Positions 6,732 through 24,899 of a stretch of DNA of 64,000 nt are shown here, one piece after another. Location: the NCBI GenBank assembly GCA_965248695.1, contig CBDFKD010000002.1, positions 3,808,001-3,872,000 of the forward strand. The letters are read 5' to 3'. Source of the stretch: Acidobacteriota bacterium (GTDB lineage: Bacteria > Acidobacteriota > UBA890 > WLXD01). How positions within the stretch are numbered: the stretch's first letter is position 1; each line of letters starts with the position of its first letter. The position numbers and the translations under genes were made by a program. A model generated the notes under the pieces. It saw only the letters and a program-made list of their open reading frames with translations, did not search any database and had not been told where the DNA came from.

Positions 6732-6736
6732 TTGCT

Positions 6737-6904
6737 CTACTTGGGATTTTCTGAATGTGGTACCGATTTTGTACCATTTCGGGCTTCATCGCTATGCAAA
6801 ACAGCTCCCCATTGCGCCGACGATTCCCGGATCAGGCGGTCGTCATCGTGCACGTACAGCATCGTCGTCTTGATGTCCGAGTGGGTGGCGACCAGCGTCG
6901 CTGT
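6737..6904 (-). pseudogene. C-terminal remnant of tyrosine recombinase/integrase
   Basis: Manual translation TATLVATHSDIKTTMLYVHDDDRLIRES...NGTKSVPHSENPK*; contains box II H-S-D-I-x-T-T-x-x-Y-x-H with the catalytic Tyr; in-frame TAG directly upstream. Confidence 0.8.
6758..6779. other. Putative integrase arm-type site (11-bp tandem)
   Basis: TGGTACCGATT-TTGTACCATTT; near-identical to 38455..38476 and similar to 24804..24826. Confidence 0.55.
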
Positions 6905-6958
6905 CTAGCAGGTAACGGTAGCGCCGAAATTCAAACTGAGACACTACCGGGCGGTTCG
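6903..6958. other. Putative site-specific recombination site(s)
   Basis: GTCTAG-N8-GGTAGC followed by TTCAAACTGAGACACTACC (6930..6948); the latter matches 24767..24785 in inverted orientation at 16/19. Confidence 0.5.
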
Positions 6959-7041
6959 GCGGGTTGATCGCGACGCCGCGACATGCTATGCAGCATGCTG
7001 CGATGCGGTAGCGTTAGGCACCCTCTCGGATCATCTCGCCA

Positions 7042-9384
7042 GTGGCCACCGTGTTCTGCACACCTGAAACAGTCCCTCGGCACGCGCCCGCCAGGCGCGT
7101 CGTCATCGCCTGGTTGGCCGCCGCGCTGATCGTGCCCGCCGCGTCGGAGGCTCAGTCGAAGCCACCGGCGCAGACGGACGGGGCCGGCAACAGCTCTCGG
7201 GTCGCGCCCGCCGGGAGCGACGAGTGGAACGACCTCGCGGTCACCGAGGCGGACCGTCTGTATCAGGTCGTCGCGGTGCGGGCATCCGTACCGCCGGACG
7301 TCGACGGCCTGCTCGATGACACGGTGTGGGATGAAGCCGAGCCGCTGGCGCGCTTCGTCCAGGCTCAGCCGGACGAAGGCGCGGATGCGAGCGAGCGCAT
7401 GGAAGTTCGTGTGCTGTACGACGACGAGGCGATCTACATCGGCGCTCGATTGTGGGACTCGTCGCCGCGCGACGTGGTCGCCTCGGTGCTGCGGCGCGAT
7501 GAGGACCACAGAGACAACGACGCGTTCGCGGTAACCCTCGATACCTACCACGACCATCGCAACGGCTACTTCTTCGAGACCAACGCGTTGGGCGCGCGGT
7601 TCGATGCGCAGATCATCGGCGAGGGCGGCACCGCACTTTGGGGGGGGGTCAGCGCCACCTTCAACAGAGACTGGGATGCGATCTGGTCGGCGGCTGGACA
7701 TCGCGACGACGAGGGCTGGTCGGTCGAGCTCGCCATCCCGTTTTGGGTGCTGCGCTTCGATCGCGACAACATGCGGGCGTGGGGCATCAACTTCCGGCGC
7801 ACGCTCAAGCGCAACTCGGAGCAGGCCTTCTGGGCGCCGGTGCCACGGCAATACGATGCCACACGGCTGTCGATGTCGGGGATGTTGGTCGGCATGCAGG
7901 CGGTTGACCGGCCGCGGAACCTCCAGGTCAAGCCGTTCGCGCTCGGCGATGTCGGACAGATCGGCAACGGACCGATAACGAGCCCGTTCTCATCGCACTT
8001 CACCGACTCTTCCGCGGATGCGGGCGTCGATATCAAGTGGATCGCCACACCGAACCTGACCGTCGACGCGACGCTCAACACCGACTTCGCGCAGGTCGAG
8101 GCCGACGACGTGCAGGTCAACCTCACGCGCTTTCCGCTGTTCTTCCCGGAGAAACGCGAGTTCTTCCTCGAGAACGCCGGCCTCTTCCAGTTCGGCAGCA
8201 GCGGTGTCCGCGACGGTGCCAGGGTGATCGGGTTTCACTCGCGCACAATCGGGATCTTTCAGGGTGGCGAGGTGCCGATCCTCGGCGGGGTACGCTTGAC
8301 CGGCAAGGCCGGCGGCTGGAACATCGGCGCGTTGACCATGCAGACCGACGCCGTGGATAGCTTGCAGCTGGGATCCGAGAACCACGGCGTGTTGCGAGTG
8401 CGCCGCGAGCTCGGCAGCCGCTCCAGCATCGGCATGCTGTTCACCAACCGGCACGAGAGCGGCACGAGCTACAACCGCTCCCTGGGCTTCGACGGGCGCT
8501 GGGCGATCGGCTCGGGGGCAACCGTCGATGGGTGGTGGATGAAGACCGAGACGCCGGGCGTCGAGTCCGGCACCGATTCGGCCGGTGCGGTGAAGTTCGA
8601 GTGGGCCAACTCGCGATTCACCGTCAACGGATCGGCGATGGACGTCGGCGACGCTTTCAACCCCGGTTTGGGCTTCGTCAACCGCGTCGGGCTGCGCTCG
8701 TACAGCACCACGGCGACCTGGTCGCCCTACTACCCGGAATCCCCGTGGGTACGCAACCTGGCCCCACACGTGGGGCTGTCTTATGTGACTGATCGTGCCA
8801 ACCGGCTGATCACACGGCGCGAGCACTACGACTTCGACCTGTTCCTGCGCCGCGGCGACAAGCTCAGCATCGAGAACAACCGGCGCTTCGAGCAGCTCGA
8901 CCTGCCCTTCGAGATCGTCCCGGGTGTGGTCATACCGCCGGGCGCCTACCACTTCAACGAGATCCACCTGGAGGCGCAATCGGACAAGAGCCGCCCAGTT
9001 TGGGGAACGGTGAACTACACGTTCGGCGACTTCTGGGACGGAACCCGGGATGTCTGGAAGCTCGAGGCCGGTGCGCGCATCGGTGCTCGCTTCGCGGCGC
9101 GAGTGTCGCTGGATCGCAACGACGTACAGCTCCCGGGCGGCGACTTCGTCGCCGACATTTGGCGCGCTCGAATCGGCTATGACTTCAACACCCGCCTGTT
9201 TCTGTCCGGGCTGTTCCAGTACGACAACATCACCGATCGGTTCCTCAGCAACGTCCGCGTGAATTTCATCCACACGCCGGGGGCGGACCTGTTTCTCGTG
9301 TACAACGAGCGCCGGTTGATCGAAGATCCGACGCTAATCGACCGCTCGATCATCCTCAAGGTGACCCAGCTATTCCGCCTCTAG
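7042..9384 (+). CDS. DUF5916 / CBM9-like domain outer-membrane protein
   Basis: Signal-like N-terminus; VDGLLDD..W, LDTYHDHRNGY, NTDFAQVEAD, RFPLFFPEKREFFLE; beta-barrel-like C-terminus. Confidence 0.9.
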   Translation: MATVFCTPETVPRHAPARRVVIAWLAAALIVPAASEAQSKPPAQTDGAGNSSRVAPAGSDEWNDLAVTEADRLYQVVAVRASVPPDVDGLLDDTVWDEAEPLARFVQAQPDEGADASERMEVRVLYDDEAIYIGARLWDSSPRDVVASVLRRDEDHRDNDAFAVTLDTYHDHRNGYFFETNALGARFDAQIIGEGGTALWGGVSATFNRDWDAIWSAAGHRDDEGWSVELAIPFWVLRFDRDNMRAWGINFRRTLKRNSEQAFWAPVPRQYDATRLSMSGMLVGMQAVDRPRNLQVKPFALGDVGQIGNGPITSPFSSHFTDSSADAGVDIKWIATPNLTVDATLNTDFAQVEADDVQVNLTRFPLFFPEKREFFLENAGLFQFGSSGVRDGARVIGFHSRTIGIFQGGEVPILGGVRLTGKAGGWNIGALTMQTDAVDSLQLGSENHGVLRVRRELGSRSSIGMLFTNRHESGTSYNRSLGFDGRWAIGSGATVDGWWMKTETPGVESGTDSAGAVKFEWANSRFTVNGSAMDVGDAFNPGLGFVNRVGLRSYSTTATWSPYYPESPWVRNLAPHVGLSYVTDRANRLITRREHYDFDLFLRRGDKLSIENNRRFEQLDLPFEIVPGVVIPPGAYHFNEIHLEAQSDKSRPVWGTVNYTFGDFWDGTRDVWKLEAGARIGARFAARVSLDRNDVQLPGGDFVADIWRARIGYDFNTRLFLSGLFQYDNITDRFLSNVRVNFIHTPGADLFLVYNERRLIEDPTLIDRSIILKVTQLFRL

Positions 9385-9398
9385 GGCCTCCCGACCGT

Positions 9399-10262
9399 TC
9401 AGGAACCGGGGTTATGCACCACTGGGTTCTCGAGCCGCAGGCCGGCGTCCTGCTCCGCGGCGTAGCCCTGCAGGTCTTGGAACTCCGGCGGCGGTCTGGA
9501 GATAAAGCGACAGCCGCACGCGACCGGGGGCGCTCAGTTGGATCGGTACCTCGACTCGCTCTCCCGGCGCCGCAAGCACGACGGTCTCCGATCGGCCTTC
9601 TGCATCGGTGCGCACGTGTAGCGTCCCGGAGCTCGGCAGCGGTCGTCCATAAGGGTCGACGCGGCGCAGGGACAGCATTGCCCCGGGGTTCAAGTCGAGC
9701 TCGAAGTCGGCCCCTGACAGGTAGGGGAGGATCAGACCCCGTCCACCCCCGGGGGTTCCAGGCGTGGCAGGGCGGTCACGGTGGGGTCGAAGAAACGGAT
9801 GCTGTCGACGGCGAATCGTAACGAGGTGCCGGTGGAGCGCTCGTCGTCGGGAGGTCGGTCGAACTCCAGGGAGAGCTCGTTGGCACCCACGCTCAGGAAA
9901 CGGGTCGGCAACGGCACCACGTAGTCTTGCCAACCCGCCAGCACGTCCACGGACGTGGGCAGCGTCACGCCGTTGTGCCGCAAGAAAAGGGTCGAGACTA
10001 CCGGCGTTTCACCGACCACGTGTGGCCGCGCACGGATCCGCAGGCGATGCGGTTGGGATTCGATCTGAAAGAACCGAATCGAGGCCTGCGACCCGCGCGC
10101 CCACACGAACGTCTCGTCCTCGCGCTGGGCCCAGCGCTCGTCGATGGGCGACCAGCCATCAACGAGGTGGCGGCGCGCCGCTGGACTCCCGAGGTCGATT
10201 GTCTCGGTCTCGACGAAGATATCGGCCGTTTGATCGGCCAATCCGAGGAAACGGACTCCACG
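9399..10262 (-). pseudogene. Frameshifted internal fragment of an extracellular protein, resembling the N-terminal region of acidobacterial sulfatase-like proteins
   Basis: ETIDLGSPAARRHLVDGWS..TFVWARG; frame changes near 9750 and 9495; ends GLRLENPVVHNPGS*; no start codon, no catalytic domain. Confidence 0.5.
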
Positions 10263-10266
10263 CCGG

Positions 10267-10690
10267 TCACGCGTTTACAGCGTCATCTAAGGCGTCGGCG
10301 ACGGCTTCGAGTTGCTGGCGAGAGATACCAGCGGTTTCCATCGCGCGGAATAGCGCAGGTCGAAGCCGGGCTTCCATCGCACGCACGACCTCGCCCGTCT
10401 TCATGTCGCGCCACTGGTCCGGCGAGCGGTTCTTCAAAAAGAAGATCATCGCCGTTACGTTGCCACCCAACGCTTTGGCGTGCAGAGCGTTCTCAACCGC
10501 ACCGACAGCACCCCGCTGGGCATCCCCAACCTGTTCTCTGAACTCGGGGTGTTTCTGCTCATGGTCGTATAGCGTCTGGCGATGACACCCCGACGACGGT
10601 CGCAGCTTCAGCCTTCCCCATGCCGGCTTTGATCGCTTTGACGACATCGTTCTTTTTAATGTCGTCAAGTTTGACGCATCTCCGCACCGG
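10267..10690 (-). pseudogene. Phage small-terminase-like HTH protein with one frameshift
   Basis: KLDDIKKNDVVKAIKAGMGKAEAATVVGV / HRQTLYDHEQKHPEFREQV..VENALHAKALGGNVTAMIFFLKNRSPDQWRD; frame change near 10585. Confidence 0.7.
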
Positions 10691-10789
10691 TGTGGTCTGG
10701 CCGTGGTCTTTGCAATGGTTGCTACCGAGCACAGCCGGTTTCTTACACCGGCCGCCCCGTGCTGTGATCCCTTACATCGCACGGCGTCT

Positions 10790-10932
10790 ATCCCACTCGA
10801 TCCTACTGACTGGGTCATCGCTGTCCTGCCCATCGTGACCGCAGGGGAGATGGATCCCGCCATCGCCGCGCTGAACAAAGGCCTGGCCCTGACGCTGACG
10901 GCGCGACTGGCGCGGCTCTCCCGCAAGTACGG
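10790..10932 (+). pseudogene. About 140-bp internal fragment of a TolB-N/FlgO-like domain, as in kinase or adenylate-cyclase TPR proteins
   Basis: WVIAVLPIVTAGEMDPAIAALNKGLALTLTARLARL resembles the IAVLPF...GLAEELITRL motif. Confidence 0.45.
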
Positions 10933-10939
10933 CCCTACA

Positions 10940-11055
10940 GCACCGACGGCTTTCGCGACCTCGCTGTCCGTTTTTCCTGCCAACAGCAGATCGATGGCGT
11001 TCGCTTGGCGGACTGACAATTCCTTCTGTCGGGATGGGTCGGGTTTCGTCGGCAT
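10940..11055 (-). pseudogene. 5' fragment of phage/satellite-type HTH DNA-binding protein
   Basis: MPTKPDPSRQKELSVRQANAIDLLLAGKTDSEVAKAVG, broken before the recognition helix. Confidence 0.6.
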
Positions 11056-11156
11056 CGTCAACTTGTTGGACTGTCCGGCTCTATCGCTCGCCGGGGTTGG
11101 GCATCGTGACACCTCGGACAGATTGTGACACGAGTAACGTGGCCTGATCTATCCCG

Positions 11157-11357
11157 ATCGAGAAAGGCGACTACGCCGACCTCGTCTTGTTCGACCCGGC
11201 GACGGTGATCGATCGCTCCACGGTCGAGGAGCCGCACCTTTCGTCGGCCGGAATTGATACTGTCTGGGTCAACGGGCAGATCGTGTACCAAAACGGAGAG
11301 ACCACTGGGAACCGGCCCGGGATGCCGATTCGCCGGGTTTCCGAAGGAGGAGGATGA
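11157..11357 (+). pseudogene. 3' fragment of D-aminoacylase, homolog of 61771..63339
   Basis: IEKGDYADLVLFDPATVIDRSTVEEPHLSSAGIDTVWVNGQIVYQNGETTGNRPGMPIRRVSEGGG* aligns with the C-terminus of the intact gene. Confidence 0.9.
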
Positions 11358-12517
11358 TGTCTGAGCGCATGACGCGCCGCGCCGCGACGAAGGCCGGTGC
11401 GATCGTCGCCGGATCGATGGTGGTCGGTGTGCCGAATTGGGCGCTGGCCGCGATGTCGCAAGACGAAACGGTTCCGTTCACCGACATGCCGGACGGGTTC
11501 GAAACCAACCCGACGCCAATCGTTCGGTTCGTAGATATCCGCGAGATCGACGAATTCTTTACGCCGGCCGACCAGTTCTTCACCGTTCAGCACTACGGGC
11601 ATCCTGAAGTGGACGCCGCGACCCACGAGCTCGAGATCAGCGGGCAAGTGTCGCGGCCTCAGAAGCTGTCTATGGCGGACATCCGTCGACGCCCGCGCAC
11701 GGAGCTGGCCTGCGCGTTCGAGTGCTCCGGCAACAGCCGCCGCCGCTTCCACGGGCTGGTCAGCAACGGCCGCTGGGGCGGTACGAGTCTGCGCGCGTTG
11801 CTCGACGAGGTGGGCGTCGAGCCGGCCGGCAAGGAAGTGGTCTTCTTCGGTGCCGATGTGGGAACCGAGACGATCGAGAAGCGGGGTAGTAGCTGGCTGG
11901 TCGATCAGCAATACGCCCGCAGCATGTCGCTCGAAGACGCCATGCGCGAGGACACCGTGCTGGTGTACGAGCTCAACGGCGAGCCGCTGAGCATCCATCA
12001 GGGAGCGCCGCTGCGGCTGATCATCCCGGGCTGGTACGGCGTTGCCCAGGTCAAATGGCTCAAGCAGATCCACGTGCAGGAAGGCCGATTCATGGGCAAG
12101 TTCATGGCCAACCACTACGTCACGCTGACGGCCAAGCAGGTGGGAGGCAGCCTCAAGTACATGGAGACCTCGGTCACCCGCATCCAGCTGAAGTCGGCCA
12201 TCGCCCGGGTCACGCGCGCTGCCGACCATCACACCGTGCACGGGTTCGCCTTGACCGACGGGACGCCGCTGGCTCGGGTGGAGGTGAAGATCGACGACGG
12301 GCCCTGGGAGCAAGTGACGCTGGATCCGCGCAATACGAAGTACTCCTGGAAGCTCTTTGCCTACCGTTGGGAAGGTGCCACGGCAGGGGAGCACACCGTC
12401 GTGTCGCGCGCCATCGATGCGAATGGCAGGGTACAGCCGGTGCTGGAGGACCTGGCCGAGAAGAGGACCAGCTGGGAGAACAACGCCCAGTTCGCGCGCA
12501 CGGTAATGATCTCGTGA
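11354..12517 (+). CDS. Sulfite oxidase family molybdopterin-dependent oxidoreductase with Tat signal
   Basis: MTRRAA twin-Arg; FECSGN (Mo-ligating Cys), NGEPLSIHQGAPLRLIIPGWYGVAQVKWL, SRAIDANGRVQP. Confidence 0.92.
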   Translation: MMSERMTRRAATKAGAIVAGSMVVGVPNWALAAMSQDETVPFTDMPDGFETNPTPIVRFVDIREIDEFFTPADQFFTVQHYGHPEVDAATHELEISGQVSRPQKLSMADIRRRPRTELACAFECSGNSRRRFHGLVSNGRWGGTSLRALLDEVGVEPAGKEVVFFGADVGTETIEKRGSSWLVDQQYARSMSLEDAMREDTVLVYELNGEPLSIHQGAPLRLIIPGWYGVAQVKWLKQIHVQEGRFMGKFMANHYVTLTAKQVGGSLKYMETSVTRIQLKSAIARVTRAADHHTVHGFALTDGTPLARVEVKIDDGPWEQVTLDPRNTKYSWKLFAYRWEGATAGEHTVVSRAIDANGRVQPVLEDLAEKRTSWENNAQFARTVMIS

Positions 12518-13208
12518 CACGCGGCGCTCGCGGCGCGCTCGCGGCCACGCTAGCCGCGTTGTTCGTGACCGGCTCGGCCGCCCGGTTCCAGGTGGACACG
12601 GAGCCGCTGGCGCTCCCTTCGAGGAGCCGACGGGTCGTGCAGCAGGCCGGACAGGGACGCTACGTACCTACGGGGCATCTCGTGTATCACGAGCGGGAAC
12701 CCTGTTTGCCGTCGCGTTTGATCTGGGAGAGCTGGAAGTGAAGGGCTCGGCGGTATCCCATCGTGCAGGGGCTTGCCACCTTTGGGCGATTGGATATCGG
12801 ACAGCTCAGCTTCTCAAGTACAGGAACACTGGCCTATCTGAGCGAGGCCGTTGCTCAGGGGTATCCCGTCGTATGGGTAAACCGGCAGGGCAACACGACA
12901 CCGCTGTGGGATGAGCCTGGCTTCTACTTTTCTCCTCGGTTGTCGCCGGACGGCACACGGCTGGCCGTGGCAAAAACCTCGCGCAACGCAAACGCTGACG
13001 TGTGGATCTATGACATCCAGCGGGGTGTGCCGACAAGGCTGACGTTTGATGAAGCGGTCGACAGCTAACCTGTTTGGTCGCCCGACGGGCAGTTTCTCGC
13101 ATTCCTGTCGAACTGCGACGGAACACAGAACATCTAACGGACTCGTGCCGACGGCTCGGGAACTGTCGAGCGGCTGATAGAGAGCGACATGGTACCCTTC
13201 CCGAATTG
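12514..13208 (+). pseudogene. Chimeric remnant: signal-peptide start fused to a degraded TolB-like propeller from a Ser/Thr kinase gene
   Basis: VTRGARGALAATLAALFVTGSAA joined to GRYVPTGHLVY...FSSTGTLAYL..WVNRQG..PRLSPDGTRLAV..WSPDGQFLAF, with frameshifts and stops; same family as 49613..52288. Confidence 0.75.
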
Positions 13209-13384
13209 GGGGCCAGGCCGGTTGACGCTGGGGAGGCTCCTGACGGTGCCTCCGTTGGATCTCGCACGCTCCGGCGATACGCTTCAGGCGACACTATATC
13301 TGGGAGGATTCTCGCAGGGCGGCGCCGCGTCCCGCCCACGGAAAGCGTCCCGCACCGCCCGGTCGATCGCCGCGACCCCTGACG

Positions 13385-15820: not shown

Positions 15821-15822
15821 CG

Positions 15823-17134: not shown

Positions 17135-17243
17135 AGCAGGGTGCGGCTCAGTCAGCGATGGCCCTCGAGGTCATCGTCGATCCGCAGGGCCGGCTCCCGG
17201 CCCTGGATCACCGCACCCCACTTTGTCGTTGCGTGTCAGCGAA

Positions 17244-20123
17244 TCAGAAGGAAAGTCGTGCCCCGAGCCGAAACTGCCGCCCGGGCAGCAGACGTGTAGA
17301 GTCGCGGGGCAGCCCGACGCTGGAGAGTCTGTTGCCTTCGGCGTCGCGCTCAAGGCTGAACGTTCGGTCGATTCGATCTCTGACGCTGGTCGGGGAGAAG
17401 TCGTTGAGCATGTTGAACCCGTCGACCATCAACTCGAACCGGCCATTCCCAAAATTAAAGGACTTCGAGAGCCGCAGATCGAGCTGCCTATGCGAATCCC
17501 ACCGCCTGCTGCGAACCTTCTCGATGTTTGTGCTGCCGTAGGCGGCGTTGAGCAATTGGGGAATCCCCCTGGATCCGTGCCTGACCTTGAGGTTCCACGG
17601 CCGACCCGACGCCAAGTTCCAGTACATACCCAAGAGGATGTCTCCGGGCAGCCTGTAGTTGCCCAGTATCTTCCAGCTCCACGTCCTGCTGAAGCGCAAC
17701 GGACCCGACTCGGAGAAAGGGTGGCCGTTGAAGTTCGGGTTGTCTTCTTCGTCGAAGCCCCTACCCCAGATGGTCTGGCCGTCGCCATTCTCTATCCTTC
17801 CCTCGTTGTTCTGGTAGGTGAGCGAGGTGCTGAAGTTGAGGCCGGAACCCGTTCGCCGTCGGTCCAGCGACAGCGTCACGATGTTGTGCCACCGCACATA
17901 GTAGTCGCTGTTATCGAAGACGTTCTCGATAGCGCCGCTGGGTTTCGAGTAGAGCGTCTGCGTCGTCGGCGTATCGAGGAATCCGGGCACCACCGGGCTG
18001 GTGTATTCGAAGGGCGTAAACACATGGTCAATGATGTCGTTGTAGATGAACATGTTGCTGTCATCTTTGCGGATGTAGTCGAGACCCACGATCCAGTCCC
18101 TGACTAATTCATACTCGAATCCGAAATTGAAGACATCCGTGTGCGTCGACTTCAAGCCGGGGGTGATCGGAAAGATATCGGCGTCGAACGAAGTCCGGTT
18201 CGCGAGTTGGAAGACAGCGTCTTGCAGCGCTAACGCTTGCGCGTCGGTCGGGTTGAACGGGTCGTAGTCGGCAGGGAACATACCGTCAGGTATTGCGAAG
18301 AAGAACCTCTGGTTGGGTTCGTATGGGTCCGTGAACGCGCCGCCGGTGGCTCTCGAGACGTGTCCGATGGAGATCTTCTCGAAGTAGCGCCCCCAGCTGC
18401 CATGGAACACGGCACGGCCATCACCGCTCACATCCAAGGTTGCACCAAGGCGTGGCGCCAAGTTGTCGTACCTGTCTACCTGAGCCCCAACCACCCCACC
18501 CTTCATGTCGTAACCGGTCGTCCGGTCAAAGCGCAGCCCGAGGTTGAGGGTGAGCTTGTCGCTAGCGGTAGCGTTATCCTGGATAAAGGCCGACTGGCGT
18601 AGCATTCGGGCCTCGAGGCCACGGTTGGAGATACGCCCATATACGTTGGAGCCATAGGTATACATGGCCCCTCTACCGGTAATCTTAGCAATCCAGGTGG
18701 ACCAAAGGTCGTTGTAGTCGAGACCGACCTTGAGGTCATGCGCGGCGCCCAGGAAGTCGTCGACGTACTGGGTCACCGTTGCCGTGACATTTTTCGAGGC
18801 GTTGTCCTCGTCCTCCACGAAGCCACGGGTGAGCCTCCGCGACCCGCTGAACCAATAATCCGGTATGTCGCAGCACACGAGCGGGATGCGCAAGAAGTCC
18901 GCCCTATTGTATGCGAGGCGGAGATCGGTGAAGGTGTTGTCGCCCAGTTGGGATTGCCAGGTGAACAACGCGGTCGTGCTGCTGTACTCGGTATCCATGG
19001 CGACGTCGAGCGGCGAACCTGGTCGCAGGTCGATGTTCGACTGGCCGCCCGGATCCTGGTTGATCATGAACCCGAACGTGTTGGTGTCGTTGAGCAAGAA
19101 ATCCAGCTTGCCGTGCAGTGCCCACCTATCGTTACCCTGCTGGGCATCATCGACGGCGATTCCACCGTTCTCCCAGAACGAGTCGGCGGCAATCGAATCG
19201 AGCTTTTCTTGACGGGAGACACCGGCAAAGAACAGCAGCTTGTTCCGCGCAATCGGGCCACCGACAGAGGCGGCAACCTCGCGGTCGTAGGAGAACTTTC
19301 CGCGCTCGAGATCCACGATGCCGCGCGAGTTGTCGGTTCTCAGAGAGCCGTTCTGCCAGTAGTAAGAGCCCGAGCCATGAAACGCGTTGGTGCCCCCCTT
19401 GGTCACAATATTGACCATCGCGCCAGTGAAGTGGCTGTACTCGGCGCTGGCGCCGATACCGACAATCTGGATCTCGGCGATCGTCTCCACGTTCGGGTTG
19501 ACAAAGGTGAGACCCCAGTCCAGCTCGTTGATGTCAACGCCGTTGAGCCGGTAGCCGTTGGTTGCGGCACCTTGCCGATGCACGCTAGTGCCCTCGGAGT
19601 GGTTGCCGCCGGCGCCATAGGCTCCCTTGTCGGCGAAACCAGCGGCGAAGTCGGTCATGTTGGCGAACTCACGCGCCACCGGAACGTTTTCCAGCAGATC
19701 CGCGCCGTATGACGTCGTAAGCGATGCCGACTCTATGTCGATCAACGGCGTCTCGGAGACGACTGTGACCGTCTCTGCGACCCCCGCCAGCTCCAGTTCC
19801 GCAATCACGGTTGACGCCGTGCCGACGTTCACCGGGACGTTGTAGGCTATCGTTTGGAACCCGGTGAGCGAGACCGTGACGATGTACATTCCCGGCCTGA
19901 GATTACGAAACCGGAAGTTGCCCGAGACGTCGCTTACCTCCGAGACAGATACCTGGATGAGGTTGTCTCCCTCGAGGGTGACGGTGGCGCCGGGCAGCCC
20001 CGCACCATCCACGTCCCGAACCACTCCGGCGATATCCCCCTGCGTCCGCTCACCCTGCGCCATCGCCTGCGCGGGGAGTATCAGGAGCATGGCAACAGTC
20101 AAGACGGCAAGCTTGGCGCGCAT
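17244..20123 (-). CDS. TonB-dependent receptor with carboxypeptidase-regulatory-like N-terminal domain
   Basis: AGGAGG RBS before ATG 20123; LPGATVTL..GNFRFRNLRPGMY, NIVTKGGTNAFHGS, LTLNLGLRFD, C-terminal RLGARLSF. Confidence 0.92.
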   Translation of the reverse strand: MRAKLAVLTVAMLLILPAQAMAQGERTQGDIAGVVRDVDGAGLPGATVTLEGDNLIQVSVSEVSDVSGNFRFRNLRPGMYIVTVSLTGFQTIAYNVPVNVGTASTVIAELELAGVAETVTVVSETPLIDIESASLTTSYGADLLENVPVAREFANMTDFAAGFADKGAYGAGGNHSEGTSVHRQGAATNGYRLNGVDINELDWGLTFVNPNVETIAEIQIVGIGASAEYSHFTGAMVNIVTKGGTNAFHGSGSYYWQNGSLRTDNSRGIVDLERGKFSYDREVAASVGGPIARNKLLFFAGVSRQEKLDSIAADSFWENGGIAVDDAQQGNDRWALHGKLDFLLNDTNTFGFMINQDPGGQSNIDLRPGSPLDVAMDTEYSSTTALFTWQSQLGDNTFTDLRLAYNRADFLRIPLVCCDIPDYWFSGSRRLTRGFVEDEDNASKNVTATVTQYVDDFLGAAHDLKVGLDYNDLWSTWIAKITGRGAMYTYGSNVYGRISNRGLEARMLRQSAFIQDNATASDKLTLNLGLRFDRTTGYDMKGGVVGAQVDRYDNLAPRLGATLDVSGDGRAVFHGSWGRYFEKISIGHVSRATGGAFTDPYEPNQRFFFAIPDGMFPADYDPFNPTDAQALALQDAVFQLANRTSFDADIFPITPGLKSTHTDVFNFGFEYELVRDWIVGLDYIRKDDSNMFIYNDIIDHVFTPFEYTSPVVPGFLDTPTTQTLYSKPSGAIENVFDNSDYYVRWHNIVTLSLDRRRTGSGLNFSTSLTYQNNEGRIENGDGQTIWGRGFDEEDNPNFNGHPFSESGPLRFSRTWSWKILGNYRLPGDILLGMYWNLASGRPWNLKVRHGSRGIPQLLNAAYGSTNIEKVRSRRWDSHRQLDLRLSKSFNFGNGRFELMVDGFNMLNDFSPTSVRDRIDRTFSLERDAEGNRLSSVGLPRDSTRLLPGRQFRLGARLSF

Positions 20124-20320
20124 TCCACACCTCCTGGGCAACTCGTCACCCGGGGCAACGGCGTCGCCCGACATTGAATTGACTAATGCTTCAGAAGGTG
20201 GTATTAGCATCGTACAGTAACCTCTGTCAACGGCCTGACCCGAATTGACCCAAACCCCGAAAACCTCTGCCAGAAGACGTCGTTGACTTTTGACAGACCC
20301 CATGGTAATAGCGCTTCATC

Positions 20321-20334
20321 TATGCTTGCATACA
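20321..20334. promoter_or_regulatory. Possible GntR/FadR-type operator in the divergent promoter region
   Basis: Inverted repeat TATGC-TT-GCATA(CA) in an AT-richer intergenic region that also has TTGAC boxes on both strands. Confidence 0.3.
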
Positions 20335-20367
20335 GGTATCTGAACGTCTTGGCCGCCGGAGGATGGT

Positions 20368-21900
20368 ATGAGCAAGAACAAAAAGGAGAACAAGCGAAAG
20401 AAGGTCAGCCGTCGCGACTTCGCCAAGACTTCGGTTGCGGCAGGAGCAGCTGCGGTGGCGCTTCCCAAGGCGCTGCGTGGTGAAACGCTGGCTACGAAGG
20501 GAACGTCGGAAGCAGCAAAAGCCGCGGCAGCCGCACCTCGGGGCCCGATCACGATGCCGCCCGAAGTGACGTATGGCGGCGAGGATTTTGACGGTCGCGA
20601 TGTGCTGCTGGAGGACATCATGTCGCCACCCGGCGAGGCCCCCAGCTATCCGGGCGGGTGGCAAGAAGGAACCACGATTCCGGCCGAATACTACCTCGAC
20701 GAGAAGCACTGGCTGAACGAAGAGCGCTTCCTGCAAGATCATTTCTGGTTCATGGCCGACCATGAGAGCCGCATTCCCAATCCGGGCGACTACTTCGTCT
20801 TCGAGTTCGGCCGTGGCGGCAGCCTCATCATCACGCGCGCCAACGACGGTGCCGTGAAGGCCTACCACAACGTCTGCCGACACCGCGGATCGCGGCTCTG
20901 CCTGCACGGTTTCGACAAGGACCTGCCGGGCGAGGCGACGCTCGACGGCAAGCCGGTGGACTCGCGGCTGTCGGTAGCCCAACAAGGACCGAGCGGTAAC
21001 ACAGCGGTCTTTCGTTGCCCGTATCACGCCTGGACCTACGATCTCGACGGCAAGCTGATCTCGGCGCCGACCGGGATGCCAGAGGGGTTCGAACAAGACC
21101 AGCACGGCCTGCACCCGGCCCACGTGCAGATGGTCGAAGGCTTCATCTTCGTCAACCTGGCCGACGAAGAACCAGCGGGCTTCGACGACTTCGTGACCAG
21201 GTGGCGAGGGGTCTGCGAGTTCTATGGAACCGCGAATCTGAAAGTAGTAGCTCGCAAGCAGTACCCGACGAAGGCGAACTGGAAGCTGGCGGTCGAGAAC
21301 TTCCAGGAGTGCTATCACTGCGAGCCGGCGCACAAGTCGTTGGTGATGGTCCAGTGGTGGCAGCAAGCGCACGTGATGACCCCCGAGCAACGCGCCAACC
21401 TCGAGCAGGAACTGGTGAGCCACGAGCACTTGGAGCGGCAACAGGACAACGCGAACCAGAGCAGCTACACGATGAACCGCCACCTCTCACCCGGCTTCGT
21501 CACCGGCAGCCTCGATGGCAAGCCGGTGGCGCCGCTCATCCTCGACGAGTGGACGCATCAGCGGCGCGGCGCAACGACCGGTTTCTCGACGTCGTTCTTC
21601 GCCGCCTACGACGACCACATCGCGGTCGCCCGCTTCACCCCACGAGACATACAGTCGACCGATGTCGAGATCTTCTGGCTGGTCAAGGGCGACGCCAAGG
21701 ATGCAGAGGTGGACGTGGAGCGCATGATGGAGCTCTGGGACGTCACCTACCGAGAGGATCTATGGATCGTCGAGAACAACCAGCACGGCATCCAGAACAG
21801 TCGCTACAACTACGGCGGCGGGCAACCGTACGCCACGCGAGAAGGGGGACCGGCCGGATTCATCAAGTGGTACATGACCGAGATCGCACCGCACGCGTAA
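20368..21900 (+). CDS. Rieske non-heme iron oxygenase alpha subunit (GbcA / choline monooxygenase-like group) with Tat-like signal
   Basis: SRRDFAK plus hydrophobic stretch; NVCRHRG...CPYHAWTY Rieske ligands; NWKLAVENFQECYHCEPAH and EDLWIVENNQ iron-site motifs. Confidence 0.9.
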   Translation: MSKNKKENKRKKVSRRDFAKTSVAAGAAAVALPKALRGETLATKGTSEAAKAAAAAPRGPITMPPEVTYGGEDFDGRDVLLEDIMSPPGEAPSYPGGWQEGTTIPAEYYLDEKHWLNEERFLQDHFWFMADHESRIPNPGDYFVFEFGRGGSLIITRANDGAVKAYHNVCRHRGSRLCLHGFDKDLPGEATLDGKPVDSRLSVAQQGPSGNTAVFRCPYHAWTYDLDGKLISAPTGMPEGFEQDQHGLHPAHVQMVEGFIFVNLADEEPAGFDDFVTRWRGVCEFYGTANLKVVARKQYPTKANWKLAVENFQECYHCEPAHKSLVMVQWWQQAHVMTPEQRANLEQELVSHEHLERQQDNANQSSYTMNRHLSPGFVTGSLDGKPVAPLILDEWTHQRRGATTGFSTSFFAAYDDHIAVARFTPRDIQSTDVEIFWLVKGDAKDAEVDVERMMELWDVTYREDLWIVENNQHGIQNSRYNYGGGQPYATREGGPAGFIKWYMTEIAPHA

Positions 21901-21984
21901 GCCGGCCTCCGTTCGCTTGGTCCATCACCGCAGGCGTGCTCTGAAGCTCACAACCGAAGGGGCGCCCTGACTCGAGGAATAGGT

Positions 21985-23949
21985 ATGCGCGATCGTGGAC
22001 TCGGAATGGACCGCAATATCACCCGGCGCGACTTAGTCAACGGCGTGAGCGTCGCTGTCGGCGGTGCGATGGCCTTGCCGGCCAGGCTTCGCGCCGCAGG
22101 CGTCAGCCAGGCCCACGCCCCCGAGAAGGCAACCGACTATTACCCGCCGGCCCGTACCGGTATGCGGGGATCGCACCCCGGTTCGTTCGAGGCGGCCCAC
22201 GCCGCCCGCGACGGCGTCACGTGGGATGACGCCGAGGACACCGGCGAGACCTACGACCTGATCGTCGTCGGCGCCGGCCTCAGCGGTCTGGCGGCGGCGT
22301 ACTTCTTCCGCAAGGCGACGAGCCCCGACGCCCGCGTGCTGATCCTCGAGAACCACGACGACTTTGGCGGCCACGCCAGGCGCAACGAGTTCGAGCACGA
22401 CGGCCAAGTGCTGCTGGTGACCGGCGGCACGTCTTACATGGTGACGCCGGAGCGCTACCCGCTGGCGGCGCGGGAGATGCTCCAGGATATCGGTGTCGAG
22501 CTGGATCATCCTACCAACAACGTCCATCGAGGGATGTTCAGGGAGTTGGGGCTGGAGCCAGCCGTTTTCTTTGGCAAGGAGAGCTTCGGGAAGGACGTCC
22601 TGGTCAACGGCAGCGTCCGGCGACCCACGGAGGAGTTCCTCGCCAAGACGCCGCTCACTGAGCCGATACGCCGGGACCTGCTGCGGCTCTGGAACGACCG
22701 GCGCGACTATCTGCCGGGGCTGTCCAGGGCGGAGAAGATCCAGCGGCTTCAACGCATCAGCTACCGCGACTACCTGCTGGATGTCGTCCAAGTGCATCCG
22801 GACGTGCTGCCGCTGGTTGGTGGGGTCTGGTGTCTGGGCGCCGATACCTCGAGCGCGTGGTTCGCCCTCTATCGCGGCCTGCCGGGCTTCCAGGGGCTCG
22901 GCTTCGAGGTTCCGCCGGAGTCACCGGCCCACCCGGACCACGACACCACCGACGTCTACTTCCCGGCCGGCAACTCCGACATCGCGCGGATGATCGTGCG
23001 CTCGTTGATCCCGGCGGCCCTACCAGCGGGATCGATGGCGAGCGTCGAGCTCCGGCGAACCAACTACTCGAAGCTTGACGAGCCGCACCAGCCCGTGCGT
23101 CTGCGGCTCAACAGCGCCGCCGTCCGCGCGCAGCATGTCGGCGATCCACCGCAGGTCTTGAGCTCGGACTCCCGCGAGACCGAGATCACCTACGTCCGCG
23201 GTGGCAAGGCCTACCGGGTGCGCGGCAAGGGCTGTGTGTTGGCCTGCTACCACACCATGATCCCGCACCTGTGTCCCGAGCTTCCATCCGAGCAGAAGGA
23301 AGCGCTGAGCCTCGCCGCACGCGCCGTGAATATGTCCACCAACGTCCTGGTGCGCGACTGGCGGGCACTCGAGGAGCTCGGCGTCTCCAGCGTTTCGTGT
23401 CCGGGCTCGTTCTACAGCGCCATCCGCCCTCGCGCACCGATCACGCTCGGGACTTACGATCCACCGCGCACGCCCGCCGACCCGATCGTCGTCTCGCTGG
23501 GGGCTGGCGGAGGGGTGCTCTCCTGGGAACCGATGGTTCGCGGCCTACGCCGCGGCGAGCCGATCCCCCCGGACACACCGGTTCGGGATCAGATGCGAGC
23601 GGTGCGACAAGCGCTCCTGGAGACATCCTTCGAGGACTTCGAACGACGGATCCGCGACCAGATGGCGCGGGTGCTGTCGCCGGCGGGCTTCGACCCGGCG
23701 CGCGACATCGAGGCGATCACCGTGAACCGCTGGCCGCACGGCTACGCCCTGGCGACCAACACGCTGTTCGATCCGGAGTCGCCTCCCGGCGAGGAGCCCT
23801 GGAAGGTCGCCAGTCAGCCCTTCGGGCGGATCACGATCGCCAACACCGATGCCTCGGGGATCGATCTCACCCAGACCGCCTTCGACGAGGCGCACCGCGC
23901 GGTCGGAGAGCTCATGCAGATGCGCCACGGCTGGTTCCCGCGGATCTAA
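21985..23949 (+). CDS. Spermidine dehydrogenase (SpdH)-like FAD oxidoreductase with Tat signal
   Basis: LGMDRNITRRDLVNG, YYPPARTGMRGSHPGSFEAAH, VVGAGLSGLAAA, NHDDFGGHARRNEF, ITVNRWPHGYA. Confidence 0.88.
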   Translation: MRDRGLGMDRNITRRDLVNGVSVAVGGAMALPARLRAAGVSQAHAPEKATDYYPPARTGMRGSHPGSFEAAHAARDGVTWDDAEDTGETYDLIVVGAGLSGLAAAYFFRKATSPDARVLILENHDDFGGHARRNEFEHDGQVLLVTGGTSYMVTPERYPLAAREMLQDIGVELDHPTNNVHRGMFRELGLEPAVFFGKESFGKDVLVNGSVRRPTEEFLAKTPLTEPIRRDLLRLWNDRRDYLPGLSRAEKIQRLQRISYRDYLLDVVQVHPDVLPLVGGVWCLGADTSSAWFALYRGLPGFQGLGFEVPPESPAHPDHDTTDVYFPAGNSDIARMIVRSLIPAALPAGSMASVELRRTNYSKLDEPHQPVRLRLNSAAVRAQHVGDPPQVLSSDSRETEITYVRGGKAYRVRGKGCVLACYHTMIPHLCPELPSEQKEALSLAARAVNMSTNVLVRDWRALEELGVSSVSCPGSFYSAIRPRAPITLGTYDPPRTPADPIVVSLGAGGGVLSWEPMVRGLRRGEPIPPDTPVRDQMRAVRQALLETSFEDFERRIRDQMARVLSPAGFDPARDIEAITVNRWPHGYALATNTLFDPESPPGEEPWKVASQPFGRITIANTDASGIDLTQTAFDEAHRAVGELMQMRHGWFPRI

Positions 23950-23951
23950 GT

Positions 23952-24331
23952 GGCGTTGGTGCATGGCTCGGAGCTAAGGGGAGCTTCCCCGTCCTCCGAG
24001 AGGGGTTCACGCCACTCGGTAGCTGTCGGGCATCCCGAGACGAGCCATCGTATTGAGGATCCTGCACGCAGGTCGCACTTCCACGCGTTGGCCCACCAAC
24101 GTGCGACTCCGCATGTCTCGGGCGATGATCGTCTTGTATCGATAGATCGCGTTCTCGACCATGGCGCGCTTGCTATAGCCGGCCCGACTCGTACTCAGGC
24201 CAATTGCGAATCCGATATCGAGACTTCGCGTACTTGTACTGGCTCCGTTTCGGGTACTTCATGGGTGGCAACTCCAGATCGGGGACCTTGCCACGATGAT
24301 GCACTGAGATCAGGAGCCATGCACCAACGCC
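23952..24331 (-). mobile_element. Internally deleted (MITE-like) IS5-family IS903-group element, 380 bp
   Basis: Perfect 18-bp terminal IRs GGCGTTGGTGCATGGCTC / GAGCCATGCACCAACGCC; transposase N-terminus (MKYPKRSQYKYAKSRYRIRNWPEYE, from 24262) joined to the C-terminus with the Y(2)R(3)E(6)K motif (YSKRAMVENAIYRYK); no target duplication. Confidence 0.88.
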
Positions 24332-24433
24332 CCGACGAGCGTCGCGAGCGCCGGTCGTGATGGGAGTGTCGCTACAGCCCAAGGGCCAATATGATGTCGC
24401 TATCCGGTCTCGAAAAATCGTCGTGAGGAAATT

Positions 24434-24649
24434 ATGTTCGGCTCGATCGGGGGCACTGAGCTGCTCATCATCCTGGTGATCGCGCTCGTGGTGTTCGGCC
24501 CGAAGCGTCTGCCGGAGCTGGGACGCACGATTGGCAAGGGTCTGAGTGAGTTCCGACGAGCCTCGAACGACCTGAAACGCTCGCTTGAAGATGAGATCAC
24601 GCTCGATGAGCACCGCAGCGAGCGGACGGGATCTCGCGATACTGACTGA
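24434..24649 (+). CDS. tatA: Twin-arginine translocase TatA/TatE family subunit
   Basis: MFGSIGGTELLIILVIALVVFGPKRLPELGRTIGKGLSEFRR; GAGG RBS. Confidence 0.9.
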   Translation: MFGSIGGTELLIILVIALVVFGPKRLPELGRTIGKGLSEFRRASNDLKRSLEDEITLDEHRSERTGSRDTD

Positions 24650-24747
24650 GCGGGTGGACCGACTGAGCGAGTGGTCGGAGTAACCGCGCGGTGAGCGAGT
24701 CTGAAGGCGCGACGATGGCCGCCGACCAGTCGGGAGCTGGCCGGAGC

Positions 24748-24830
24748 GAGACACTACCAGCTTTTCGGTAGTGTCCCATTATGAAAGTCACTGAAAGTCA
24801 GTTTGGCACCGATTTTGCGGACGTTTCGGG
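24748..24830. other. Putative recombination/attachment site: inverted core plus tandem repeats
   Basis: GACACTACC-AGCTTTTC-GGTAGTGTC, then TGAAAGTCA x2 (24782..24800), then arm-like TGGCACCGATTTTG (24804). Confidence 0.5.
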
Positions 24831-24899
24831 TGGCACTTGTGGCCTGCTAGCCTTTGTAGCGGGGTCGAAAGCGTGCAGGGGTAGGAGTGAGCGCGGGAG

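Follow-up and report, generated by a model that had tools for sequence, protein, structure and literature searches.

Insertion sequences (IS) of the IS1 family are stated to have GGnnnTG ends (PMC6807381), and their target duplications are given as 8 or 9 bp (PMC12428005). The use of a surrogate end is documented for ISEcp1, ISCR1 and derivatives of Tn3/Tn21, and the IS1 family is not among the cases named, at least in those sections of PMC3316993 that describe them. Here we analyse a 64,000-nucleotide stretch of an acidobacterial genome (the window), in which 17.8 kb of accessory genes lies between two 19-bp sites that the initial annotation read as tyrosine-recombinase core sites. Because the sites are worn-down IS1-type ends on either side of a recently imported block, the arrangement is a scar of transposon traffic and not a new gene-capture system. 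Taken jointly, IS1-family ends, an imported block and no tyrosine-recombinase system form a reading that we hold with good confidence.

Direct reading of the window places the left 19-mer, TTCAAACTGAGACACTACC, at 6930-6948 and the right 19-mer, GGTAGTGTCCCATTATGAA, at 24767-24785, and confirms that they are inverted copies agreeing at 16 of 19 positions, as initially annotated. No second match to the 19-mer at three or fewer mismatches arose in any of 100 shuffles of the window, and the pattern (at most two mismatches) is present in 11 of the 41 relatives' genomes versus 0/41 for a reversed control pattern; the shuffles and the control therefore identify the pair as real homology. The letters and N8 spacing of the proposed symmetric core are likewise present at 24750-24775, which reads GACACTACC-N8-GGTAGTGTC, but its left arm is tatC coding sequence, kept in relatives that lack the element at this position. 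The proposed degenerate core (GTCTAG-CAGGTAAC-GGTAGC, 6903-6922) does not hold up as a recombinase site: GCTACC, the reverse complement of GGTAGC, matches GTCTAG at 1/6 positions, and the sequence falls within the 65-bp remnant of an IS (IS-L, described below), and the complete G005 element that this remnant matches has GTCATC as the second half. The spacers of the two proposed cores have no sequence in common. The hairpin at the right site has an unremarkable folding energy (z -1.17). In 64 kb, perfect stems of 9 bases are no rarity.

Complete IS copies at other places in this genome, and in relatives, indicate what the 19-mers are: these copies have the same GGTAGTG... ends, together with a transposase of IS1 type and target duplications of 8 bp. 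Three complete elements in this genome (2186, 2825 and 3160 bp) are bounded by related 19-mers, each with an IS1-type transposase gene inside, and perfect 8-bp duplications, AGGTCCCG and CGACTGCG, occur at two of the three. Transposases of this genome match the Pfam model DDE_Tnp_IS1 at 37.1 and 24.6 bits (cut-off 24.1), and their best NCBIfam model is 'IS1 family transposase' at 70.5 and 63.4 bits, below the curated cut-off of 100; NCBIfam IS6 models score 21-27 bits, compared with 63-70 bits for IS1 models. Of the 120 transposase relatives listed, every one named by its source is designated an IS1 family transposase, and PF03400 is present in nearly all. Judged by these sequence matches, each 19-mer is the terminal inverted repeat of an insertion sequence of the IS1 family, whose transposases are of DDE type, and the N8, initially taken for a strand-exchange overlap, is the target-duplication length of this IS1-type group. 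The nearest known elements are the long single-ORF members of the IS1 family, the ISMhu11 subgroup of ISfinder. A scan of the window for an IS1-type transposase gene found none left, and both sites within it are inert remnants.

An integrase remnant 47 bp from the left site and inverted arms around 8 bases at the right site would suit tyrosine-recombinase core sites that captured host DNA, but the company that the motif keeps argues otherwise. Co-occurrence with an integrase had been expected; of the 10 related 19-mer sites elsewhere in this genome, 8 have a gene for an IS1-type transposase no more than 1.7 kb away, and none has an integrase match within 10 kb, the nearest being 16 kb away. 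Given also that one arm of the right core is conserved tatC coding sequence, that the second core is asymmetric IS interior, that the spacers share no common sequence and that the integrase remnant belongs to a different repeat family, we regard this mechanism as extremely improbable. Half of the findings that the initial annotation had set against its own model were made; a conserved tatA terminator at 24750-24775 is not one of them, and this candidate was rejected, as 0/4 relatives have the right arm and no terminator-like site is present there.

At the left border, the last piece of flank A (6345..6722, minus strand) encodes the C-terminal part of a membrane protein of ABC-2 type, the gene being cut at 6722, where the homology of the window to the closest species (G003) ends; in G003 the frame extends further upstream, and an ABC ATPase gene comes after this longer ORF. 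The adjoining end of an integrase-bearing element (6723..6884, minus strand), 95-96 % identical to C2:2774602-2774766 and C2:303523-303360, retains the final 48 codons of a tyrosine-recombinase gene (6740-6883), which match residues 318-365 of an intact 365-aa integrase at 91.7 % (tblastn). NCBIfam matches of the intact protein are of tyrosine-recombinase (Xer / integron-integrase) type, all under curated cut-offs. This repeat family, distinct from the 19-mer elements, ends at 6884, and its integrase homology is thus not cut at the degenerate core (6903) as had been supposed. The arm motif GGYACCGATTTTG, reported outside each site, is indeed present at 6759 and 24805 but is weak statistically, with 4 matches to the 13-mer at two or fewer mismatches against 1.53 expected, a number reached in 4 of 100 shuffles; at 6759 it is integrase C-terminal coding sequence and at 24805 the subterminal part of an IS remnant. 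IS-L itself (6884..6948, plus strand) is a 65-bp right-end remnant of an IS1-family IS, the terminal repeat of which (6930-6948) is the left site. By blastn (E 1e-14) its 65 bp are 84.6 % identical to positions 1932-1996 of G005:C1:509876-511871, an entire IS of 1996 bp that has an IS1-type transposase and the 8-bp duplication AGACAGGC.

At the right border, tatA (24434..24649, plus strand; Pfam TatA_B_E, 70.1 bits; paralog at C2:4930192-4930404) is followed by the start of tatC (24691..24758, plus strand), of which the first 22 codons and 2 bases remain, cut before the TatC domain. The tatC reading frame runs on in G001-G004, and a complete TatC of 258 aa is encoded in G001 (Pfam 220.7 bits) and in G003 (216.6 bits). 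The exact end of tatC homology is the 11-mer GAGACACTACC (24748..24758, plus strand), which covers codons E-T-L-P, serves as left arm in the proposed symmetric core and agrees at 11/11 bases with the tip of the IS-L terminal repeat (6938-6948). The corresponding position reads GAGACACTACC in G002, GAGACGCTACC in G004 and G001, and GAAACGCTACC in G003, so that in all four same-genus genomes tatC passes through GAGAC[A/G]CTACC (or its G003 variant) into GGA[A/G]ATG, whereas the present genome breaks right after the 11-mer. The 8-bp spacer that follows, AGCTTTTC (24759..24766), is neither tatC nor IS, the relatives' tatC reading GGAAATGA here, and its length is again that of the target duplication of this IS1-type group. 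The bases left of the IS-L remnant (6877-6884), TCCGAGTG, do not match it. IS-R (24767..24977, plus strand), with the right site as its terminal repeat (24767-24785), is the left-end remnant of a second IS1-family element and has an internal deletion; it matches the end of the 2825-bp IS at C2:5219663-5222487, which encodes an IS1-type transposase, and that of its copy at C1:5- (82 % over 192 bp, E 1e-37), with a further 38-bp match to positions 396-431 of this IS.

A local transposase-mediated deletion could also be proposed for this border, with IS-R originally some distance downstream of an intact tatC. The IS-R transposase would have made a circle-type junction between the 11-mer and a point 8 bases beyond the IS-R end, with loss of the remaining tatC and of all intervening DNA. 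tatC does end precisely at a repeat-like 11-mer 8 bases before the IS-R end, the remainder of this tatC copy was searched for in this genome and is absent, and IS1 appears among the families with circular intermediates and abutted ends in the portion of bioRxiv 10.1101/2023.06.07.543989 concerned with these. However, the 11-mer fits IS-L (11/11) better than the tip of the IS-R repeat type (GGGACACTACC, 10/11), and the left border of the block, also an IS1-family end with the same 11-base tip, would be left unexplained; we consider such a deletion unlikely. Slightly more unlikely still is that two unrelated IS insertions or remnants bracket the block and that the tatC break at the 11-mer is coincidental. 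Such independent events would suit an IS-packed genome with several separate rearrangements at the locus, and the stem and folding energy at the right site are as ordinary as noted above, but simple arithmetic gives a chance of ~4^-11 for the given 11-mer right before the break, and the 8-base gap to the next IS end is both the duplication length of the family and found repeatedly elsewhere. Junctions of right repeat, 8 bp and left repeat in which the repeats on either side are long are found in G007, G359 and G002:C4 and twice in G004; at G002:C4 a complete 2205-bp IS with flanks GCCCAGTC / GCCCGGTC is joined by the same 8-mer to the end of a different IS1-family element.

Between the two borders lies the accessory block (6949..24758), whose genes, by Pfam, include a DUF5916/CBM9 protein, a molybdopterin oxidoreductase, a sulfatase-TPR protein, a TPR protein, an outer-membrane barrel protein, a Rieske oxygenase, an FAD oxidoreductase, tatA and the tatC start; the initial description of host-type genes inside the sites and mobile-element DNA outside both is thereby borne out. 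All nine block genes tested have a 67-89 % paralog elsewhere in this genome. Collinear copies of the block, 95-99 % identical to it, stand in other contexts on G002:C9 and G004:C2, as compared with 73-86 % identity of the core DNA (flanks A, B and C) to G002 and G004; the closest species, G003, is 78-94 % identical and has only a ~75 % paralog of the block. Flanks A and B, which the block interrupts, are neighbours in all four same-genus relatives, separated by 118 bp (G002), 134 bp (G004), 164 bp (G001) and 2089 bp (G003). From the excess identity of the block over the core and the adjacency of the flanks, it follows that the block is imported accessory DNA, evidently recent, between chromosomal flanks neighbouring in related species. 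The suggestion that host DNA had been inserted here is upheld, as is the expectation that the sites mark synteny breaks and gene truncations (the integrase remnant on the left, tatC on the right). Both IS remnants point away from the interior, and the 17.8 kb is simply the stretch between two IS ends.

Beyond the block, IS-R is interrupted by an IS3-family IS (25048..26320, plus strand; Pfam HTH_Tnp_1 and rve; NCBIfam IS3 transposase, 243.7 bits; 8 full-length copies in this genome), behind which its 3' end is repeated over 219 bp (26321-26540). The genome is dense in IS: one IS3-family element is present in 42 full copies and another in 8. The conserved flank B (26541..31158), which in relatives sits directly beside flank A in the opposite orientation, is also inverted and has more IS copies around it, so several further rearrangements are needed to account for the present order.

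Most likely the block was carried in by IS-L, and the tatC 11-mer served either as a surrogate end or as the microhomology for recombination. In the former case, IS-L would have inserted at GGGCGGTT, the left edge of the block, in a donor like G002 or G004, and its transposase would have taken the tatC 11-mer for a right end and paired it with the true left end of IS-L. IS-L and the 17.8 kb would then have moved as one unit into AGCTTTTC, 8 bases abutting the end of the resident IS-R, a position next to another IS end that this IS group appears to use repeatedly. A later deletion would have taken IS-L positions 1-1931 and fused the rest to the integrase remnant, and since the IS-L left end and its flank are gone, the predicted left-hand AGCTTTTC is no longer readable. 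We put this sequence-based reconstruction forward tentatively, as plausible without calling it probable; the surrogate end, at 11 bases, is much shorter than the ~19-bp repeat, a search of this genome for the reciprocal junction found none, and neither junction was found in the other genomes and metagenome contigs searched. The event is of an ordinary kind, with one modestly interesting detail.

Alternatively, the right border may stem from recombination between a resident IS-L-AGCTTTTC-IS-R arrangement and an incoming IS-L-block-tatC molecule, anchored by IS-L homology, with an illegitimate crossover where tatC and the tip of the resident IS-L repeat share 11 bases. Homology-facilitated illegitimate recombination is the name and mechanism for such homology-anchored, microhomology-closed crossovers. 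It would yield exactly both observed junctions, draws on the 11/11 identity of 6938-6948 with 24748-24758, agrees with the block being imported DNA, and starts from a repeat-8 bp-repeat junction of a type that exists in G002:C4 (two different IS types), G007, G359 and G004. Yet it requires IS-L in donor and recipient alike, and this genome has no further IS-L-type copy, the only other 19-mer at two or fewer mismatches sitting in a different element; a block-free IS-L/IS-R junction was found in no collection searched. We view this route as possible but doubtful.

Compared with known systems, the locus resembles tyrosine-recombinase core sites (phage att, dif/Xer, integron attC) in its inverted arms around 6-8 bases at 24750-24775 and in the nearby integrase remnant, but one arm is host coding sequence, the 'partner' sites have no common overlap, and the sites travel with DDE transposases rather than integrases. 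IS26 tends to sit directly beside another copy, whereas adjoining copies here do not share one IS and are set apart by an 8-bp spacer. The IS6/IS26 family also has GGnnnTG ends and 8-bp duplications, as stated in the sections of PMC6807381 on these features, but IS1 models score far better than IS6 models. As in IS1-bounded composite transposons such as Tn9, in the description given in PMC12428005, host-type genes lie between two same-orientation IS1-family elements; here, however, the two are different types, 16/19 in the repeat and otherwise without similarity, both are truncated, and the cargo ends on the right with the tatC 11-mer, 8 bases short of the second IS, rather than at that IS. 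With ISEcp1/ISCR1 surrogate-end ('one-ended') mobilisation, as outlined in parts of PMC3316993, the locus has in common an IS at one edge of ordinary genes and, at the other, a short IS-end lookalike in an unrelated gene that is thereby truncated, although the IS family differs and the event here is a candidate, the left end, where a matching target duplication would lie, being deleted. Unlike the 768-bp E. coli IS1 (size as given in PMC12428005), the complete relatives here span 2.0-3.2 kb, with one long transposase ORF, extra ORFs without Pfam matches and NCBIfam scores below the curated cut-off, and both window copies are remnants without a transposase; the matches to DDE_Tnp_IS1 and NCBIfam IS1 models, the GGTAGTG ends fitting GGnnnTG, the 8-bp duplications and the ~19-bp terminal repeats are those of the IS1 family.

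The two 19-bp sequences to which the initial annotation drew attention, TTCAAACTGAGACACTACC at 6930-6948 and GGTAGTGTCCCATTATGAA at 24767-24785, are present as described, with an inverted identity of 16/19, and because shuffled versions of the window gave zero matches to this 19-mer at up to 3 mismatches, the pair is real and not a product of chance. Scanning the whole genome (5.89 Mb in two contigs, 65 % G+C; the window is C2:3808001-3872000) with up to 4 mismatches allowed returned 12 related sites, one chance-level match set aside, and at up to 2 mismatches the 19-mer is present in 11 of 41 related genomes, with none in the reversed control. Eight of the ten related sites outside the window have an IS1-type transposase gene no more than 1.7 kb away. 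The initial annotation had read the sites as possible tyrosine-recombinase sites, but none of these ten falls less than 10 kb from a tyrosine-recombinase match. Judged by their sequence, both 19-bp sites are the ends of IS1-family insertion sequences (IS): a right-end remnant at 6884-6948, termed IS-L, and the left-end remnant of a second element at 24767-24977, termed IS-R.

Complete IS1-type elements occur elsewhere in the genome at C2:1268414-1270599 (2186 bp, with perfect 19-bp inverted repeats GGTAGTGTCCTAATTTGAA), C2:2238349-2241508 (3160 bp) and C2:5219663-5222487 (2825 bp, with a second copy from C1:5), and a partial element lies near C2:1402095. Two of the complete elements are flanked by perfect 8-bp target duplications, AGGTCCCG and CGACTGCG; the 2825-bp element is without one. 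A protein of 276-289 aa is encoded inside every complete element. Pfam DDE_Tnp_IS1 (PF03400) scores 37.1 bits in the 2186-bp element and 24.6 bits in the 2825-bp element against a cut-off of 24.1, and the best model, NCBIfam 'IS1 family transposase' (NF033558), scores 70.5 and 63.4 bits, under its cut-off of 100. Relatives of the transposase number at least 8000 protein matches, all with E ≤ 0.001, and among the 120 relatives listed, those named by their source (NCBI or JGI) are IS1 family transposases. The IS ends examined in five genomes (G000, the genome studied here, and G005, G002, G004 and G007) carry GGTAGTG, with individual ends reading GGTGCTG or GGTGGTG, and these fit the IS1 family because GGnnnTG is the rule quoted for its ends (PMC6807381). 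A duplication of 8 or 9 bp of target is given for IS1 in PMC12428005. Transposase type, GGnnnTG ends and 8-bp duplications thus point to membership of the IS1 family, with the NCBIfam score sub-threshold. We take the subgroup to be the one called ISMhu11, although we found no paper pairing ISMhu11 with 'IS1 family'.

Mini-elements made up of a fused left and right repeat were also seen: a 32-bp example lies at C2:1393305-1393336, and 32-33-bp examples are found at positions 1488-1519 of locus L055 (from same-genus genome G002, contig C6) and 1501-1533 of locus L059 (from genome G009). Two of these bear clean 8-bp target duplications, GGGTTGTC and GATCTGTT, and this IS group could hardly have shorter non-autonomous derivatives than such fused repeats would be. 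A GG[T/C]AC[C/G]GAT motif recurs 40-90 bp inside several IS1-family ends (window 24805-24817; locus L004, 43-55; right end of the G005 IS), namely in IS-R, in its full copies and in the IS-L relative of G005. It is also present where the genes of the integrase family described below finish, in their 3' coding sequence, and may be either a transposase-binding feature or a product of chance.

On the left, 6884-6948 aligns with the terminal 65 bp of a complete IS from a related genus (1996 bp, G005:C1:509876-511871; 84.6 % identity, E 1e-14), which has an IS1-type transposase, repeats GGTAGTGTCTCAGTTTGAT and TTCAAACTGAGACACTACC, and an 8-bp duplication, AGACAGGC. Since the interior right end of this IS accounts for 6884-6948 in full, we dropped a reading of 6917-6948 as a 32-bp fused-repeat mini-element (22/32 identical, by eye, to C2:1393305-1393336). 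The 'degenerate core' of a recombinase site proposed at 6903-6922 also dissolves: its halves are complementary at only 1/6 positions, it sits within the IS interior, and the G005 IS reads GTCTAG-TAGGTAAC-GTCATC at that position. Directly to the left lies an integrase remnant (6740-6883, minus strand, 48 codons), whose repeat family has an intact member encoding a 365-aa integrase (C2:2774623-2775717); homology to this family runs from ~6720 to 6884 of the window and ends there. The integrase-bearing element itself ends at ~6723, truncating an ABC-2-type membrane protein gene through which the same-genus genome G003 continues, and the flanks of the two other copies of the element (C2:2774602, C2:303523) end ...CAC directly before it. 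If the region has any tyrosine-recombinase junction, 6700-6740 is the place for it.

On the right, 24767-24958 (192 bp) aligns at 82 % identity with one end of the 2825-bp element and with its C1 copy (E 1e-37), an additional 38-bp match to that element points to an internal deletion in IS-R, and an IS3-family element breaks into IS-R at 25048. No IS1-type transposase gene is left anywhere in the window. The letters reported for 24750-24775, GACACTACC-AGCTTTTC-GGTAGTGTC, are correct, but they do not form a recombinase core, as the left arm is tatC coding sequence. The 11-mer GAGACACTACC at 24748-24758 encodes E-T-L-P near the start of tatC and is not element DNA. In all four same-genus genomes searched, tatC reads on into GGA[A/G]ATG..., the counterpart of the 11-mer being GAGACACTACC in G002, GAGACGCTACC in G004 and G001, and GAAACGCTACC in G003. 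Full 258-aa tatC ORFs are found in G001 and G003 (Pfam TatC 220.7 and 216.6 bits), and a paralogous tatA-tatC pair at C2:4.93 Mb of the present genome has the same layout. Position 24758 is precisely where homology of the window to every relative stops; the 8 bases that come next, AGCTTTTC, belong to neither tatC nor IS, IS-R follows, and the remainder of this tatC copy is absent from the genome. Insertion of IS-R into tatC beside the 11-mer was rejected, since it would have left tatC's own GGAAATGA as the spacer in place of AGCTTTTC. The tatC attached to the block has decayed in relatives too, being cut to 131 aa in G002 (locus L008, 1176-1568) and frameshifted at 149 aa in G004 (locus L009, 1122-1568). 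Just past the tatA stop, at 24632-24665, 17 bases are extra relative to the paralogous tatA locus and repeat the neighbouring GACTGAGCG motif.

The initial annotation had itself raised the alternative that the hairpin at 24750-24775 is a conserved tatA terminator, and we rejected this reading as well: the hairpin is without a T tract, its right arm is present in none of the four relatives, no terminator-like site was found in 24400-25100, and the fold is unremarkable (z-score -1.17, with 26 of 200 shuffles folding at least as well). Nor do the remaining features expected of tyrosine recombination fare better. Instead of two inverted arms belonging to the element, 24750-24758 is tatC coding sequence conserved in all four relatives, none of which has an element there. 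The partner sites have no overlap sequence in common (CAGGTAAC versus AGCTTTTC), and the spacers of like junctions elsewhere, GAACAAAC, GCCCGGTC, GTAGCTTC and GCCACGGA, all differ. Neither a tRNA gene nor an Rfam family was detected in the window, which therefore has no attachment site of the tRNA type. Of the marks of a tyrosine-recombinase system that sequence comparison can test, travel with an integrase, element-owned arms and a shared overlap are all absent. This removes a false lead, as the region holds well-known IS1-type remnants and no new recombinase-based gene-capture system.

The 17.8-kb block between the two remnants (6949-24758) does consist of ordinary host-type genes, as had been claimed: they encode a DUF5916/CBM9 protein, a molybdopterin oxidoreductase, a sulfatase-TPR protein, a TPR protein, an outer-membrane barrel protein, a Rieske oxygenase, an FAD oxidoreductase and TatA. 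Positions 6947-24758 are collinear with, and 95-99 % identical to, contigs G002:C9 and G004:C2, whereas the flanking and nearby core DNA of these two genomes is only 73-86 % identical to that of G000. In the closest species, G003 (78-94 %), the sole counterpart is a paralog of the first block gene, at ~75 %. The left flank A (1 to ~5730) and the right flank B (26545-31159) adjoin in all four same-genus genomes, with gaps of 118 to 2089 bp and B oppositely oriented; as A and B are neighbours there, ~20 kb has been inserted between them in G000. For all nine block genes tested, G000 contains a 67-89 % paralog at another location; these paralogs occupy at least five loci (for example C2:4153249 and 4155925, 3871336, 5595499-5602183, 5645009-5648514 and 4930192), while no G000 paralogs were found for w614, w5779 and w6345 in the left flank or for w27019 to w30664 in the right flank. 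High identity set against a diverged core, the adjacency of A and B in relatives, and paralogs of block genes only together identify the interior as imported accessory DNA.

The borders of the block differ in its other hosts. In G002 and G004 the left neighbour is a protein-kinase fragment and the block continues rightward into tatC. Among public runs, represented as Logan contigs, three contain the block, starting at 6947, next to a different left flank, and one spans 6854-8100 without difference, though this run may be the source sample and hence not independent. None of the joints listed links 6948 to 24759 or circularises the interior; Logan contigs, from which rare variants are dropped, are uninformative on excision. 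A 402-bp segment of the block (9414-9815) is missing in G004 and in one metagenome contig, and this absence is a deletion in the G004 lineage, since G002 and the G000 paralog retain the segment.

Flank B is inverted in G000 relative to A and to the further conserved flank C, as judged against G001-G004, and B (26541-31158) lies between two inverted IS3-family copies (25048-26320 and 31290-32550, ~75 % alike), of whose types G000 holds 8 and 42 full-length copies. Further rearrangements have therefore occurred here. Within B, DUF3179 is split over consecutive ORFs at 28214-29821 (profile 10-64) and 29843-30562 (profile 74-292), which may be a frameshifted gene. Farther right, 32917-38243 (minus strand) encodes an HTH protein, a large terminase and two N6/N4 DNA methylases; G000 contains two to three further copies of these genes at 97-100 % identity, the first methylase gene has one more copy at ~79 %, and the cluster looks like a prophage-like or gene-transfer-agent-like repeat.

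Any account of how the block arrived must bring together what the alignments document: the ends are of the IS1 family, tatC is broken, and the block is imported and sits between conserved neighbours. The block begins right after the tip of the IS-L repeat (6948/6949; ...GAGACACTACC/GGGCGGTT...) and finishes with the same 11 bases in tatC (...GAGACACTACC/AGCTTTTC/IS-R). By simple arithmetic an 11/11 match at the break point has a chance of ~4^-11, and we regard coincidence as a very improbable explanation. The match is what a surrogate end would look like, with the IS-L repeat at one edge of the block and an 11/11 copy of its tip at the other. The left border of the block in G004 reads ...CATAAGCC-GGGCGGTT-CGG..., as insertion of IS-L there with GGGCGGTT as target would predict, and the distance from the tatC break to IS-R is 8 bases, the target-duplication length of this IS group. 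Of the routes that we infer, we tentatively prefer one in which IS-L would have stood at the left edge of the block in a donor like G002 or G004, and its transposase would have paired the true left end with a surrogate right end, the tatC 11-mer. The resulting ~20-kb unit, IS-L plus block, would have landed in the 8 bases beside a resident IS-R, so that its right flank is AGCTTTTC. A matching AGCTTTTC is predicted on the left, where the end of IS-L and its flank are deleted, and searches of G000 and of genome and metagenome contigs turned up no intact copy. A later deletion, which enters all versions, would have removed IS-L positions 1-1931 and fused the remainder to the integrase remnant.

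The same 11 bases would also serve a rather unlikely alternative, in which the recipient already carried IS-L-AGCTTTTC-IS-R and an incoming IS-L-block-tatC segment recombined with it through IS-L homology and the 11-base microhomology. Exact-pattern scans for AGCTTTTC joined to the IS-R end gave 0 in genome and metagenome contigs, and those for the left junction likewise gave 0 in both. An improbable third route is a local transposase-made deletion joining the 11-mer to a position 8 bases outside IS-R; in its favour, IS1 is listed among the IS families with circular, abutted-end intermediates (bioRxiv 10.1101/2023.06.07.543989). Capture of a circle by a reactive repeat-repeat junction was rejected, as GGGCGGTT and AGCTTTTC are not a duplication. 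A search of G000 for reciprocal junctions (the repeat tip with the tatC remainder, AGCTTTTC by other ends, GGGCGGTT by a left end) found chance-level near matches only.

The preferred surrogate-end route places the unit beside a resident end, and junctions of right repeat, 8 bp and left repeat, with long repeats on both sides, recur in G007 (GAACAAAC), G002:C4 (GCCCGGTC) and G359 (GCCACGGA). In G002:C4, a complete 2205-bp IS has flanks GCCCAGTC and GCCCGGTC, the second of which directly joins it to a different IS1-family element, and therefore one element inserted into the 8 bases beside the other's end. G004:C2 (locus L072, 909-8566) holds a head-to-tail triple array of a 2547-bp IS1-family IS in which every spacer and both outer flanks are GTAGCTTC; a preference for end-adjacent insertion would also explain such arrays spaced by one target duplication, and this one could alternatively derive from a circle recombining into a resident copy. 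When CACTACC-N(0-20)-GGTAGTG was scanned across 401 genomes of the phylum, total matches were not above the reversed control. Among the matches listed, whose extended repeat identity was checked for part only, 8-bp (7 sites) and 9-bp (8 sites, 5 in one genome) spacers stand out, and 3-bp spacers are also frequent, mostly at recurring GCT/AGC sites. The recurring repeat-8 bp-repeat junction points to end-adjacent targeting in this IS group. The full proposal, that an IS1-family element carried ~20 kb (itself and 17.8 kb) between species by way of an 11-base surrogate end in tatC, and that the group prefers to insert in the 8 bases beside a resident relative's end, is slightly more doubtful than the surrogate-end route taken by itself.

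The finding is a further example of a known element and event, with two mildly unusual points, namely the tatC 11-mer that borders the cargo and the recurrence of the repeat-8 bp-repeat junction in this IS group. It offers a clean natural case, in which 17.8 kb of ordinary genes, shared by three species in near-identical form, has an IS end at one border and an 11-base copy of that end, within tatC, at the other. Both the surrogate-end route, if correct, and end-adjacent targeting bear on the annotation of IS-rich environmental genomes and on how synteny breaks in them are read. The preferred route would resemble the surrogate-end mobilisation described for ISEcp1 and ISCR1 in PMC3316993, and if it is true, IS1-family elements can mobilise large adjacent DNA, as is known for ISEcp1.
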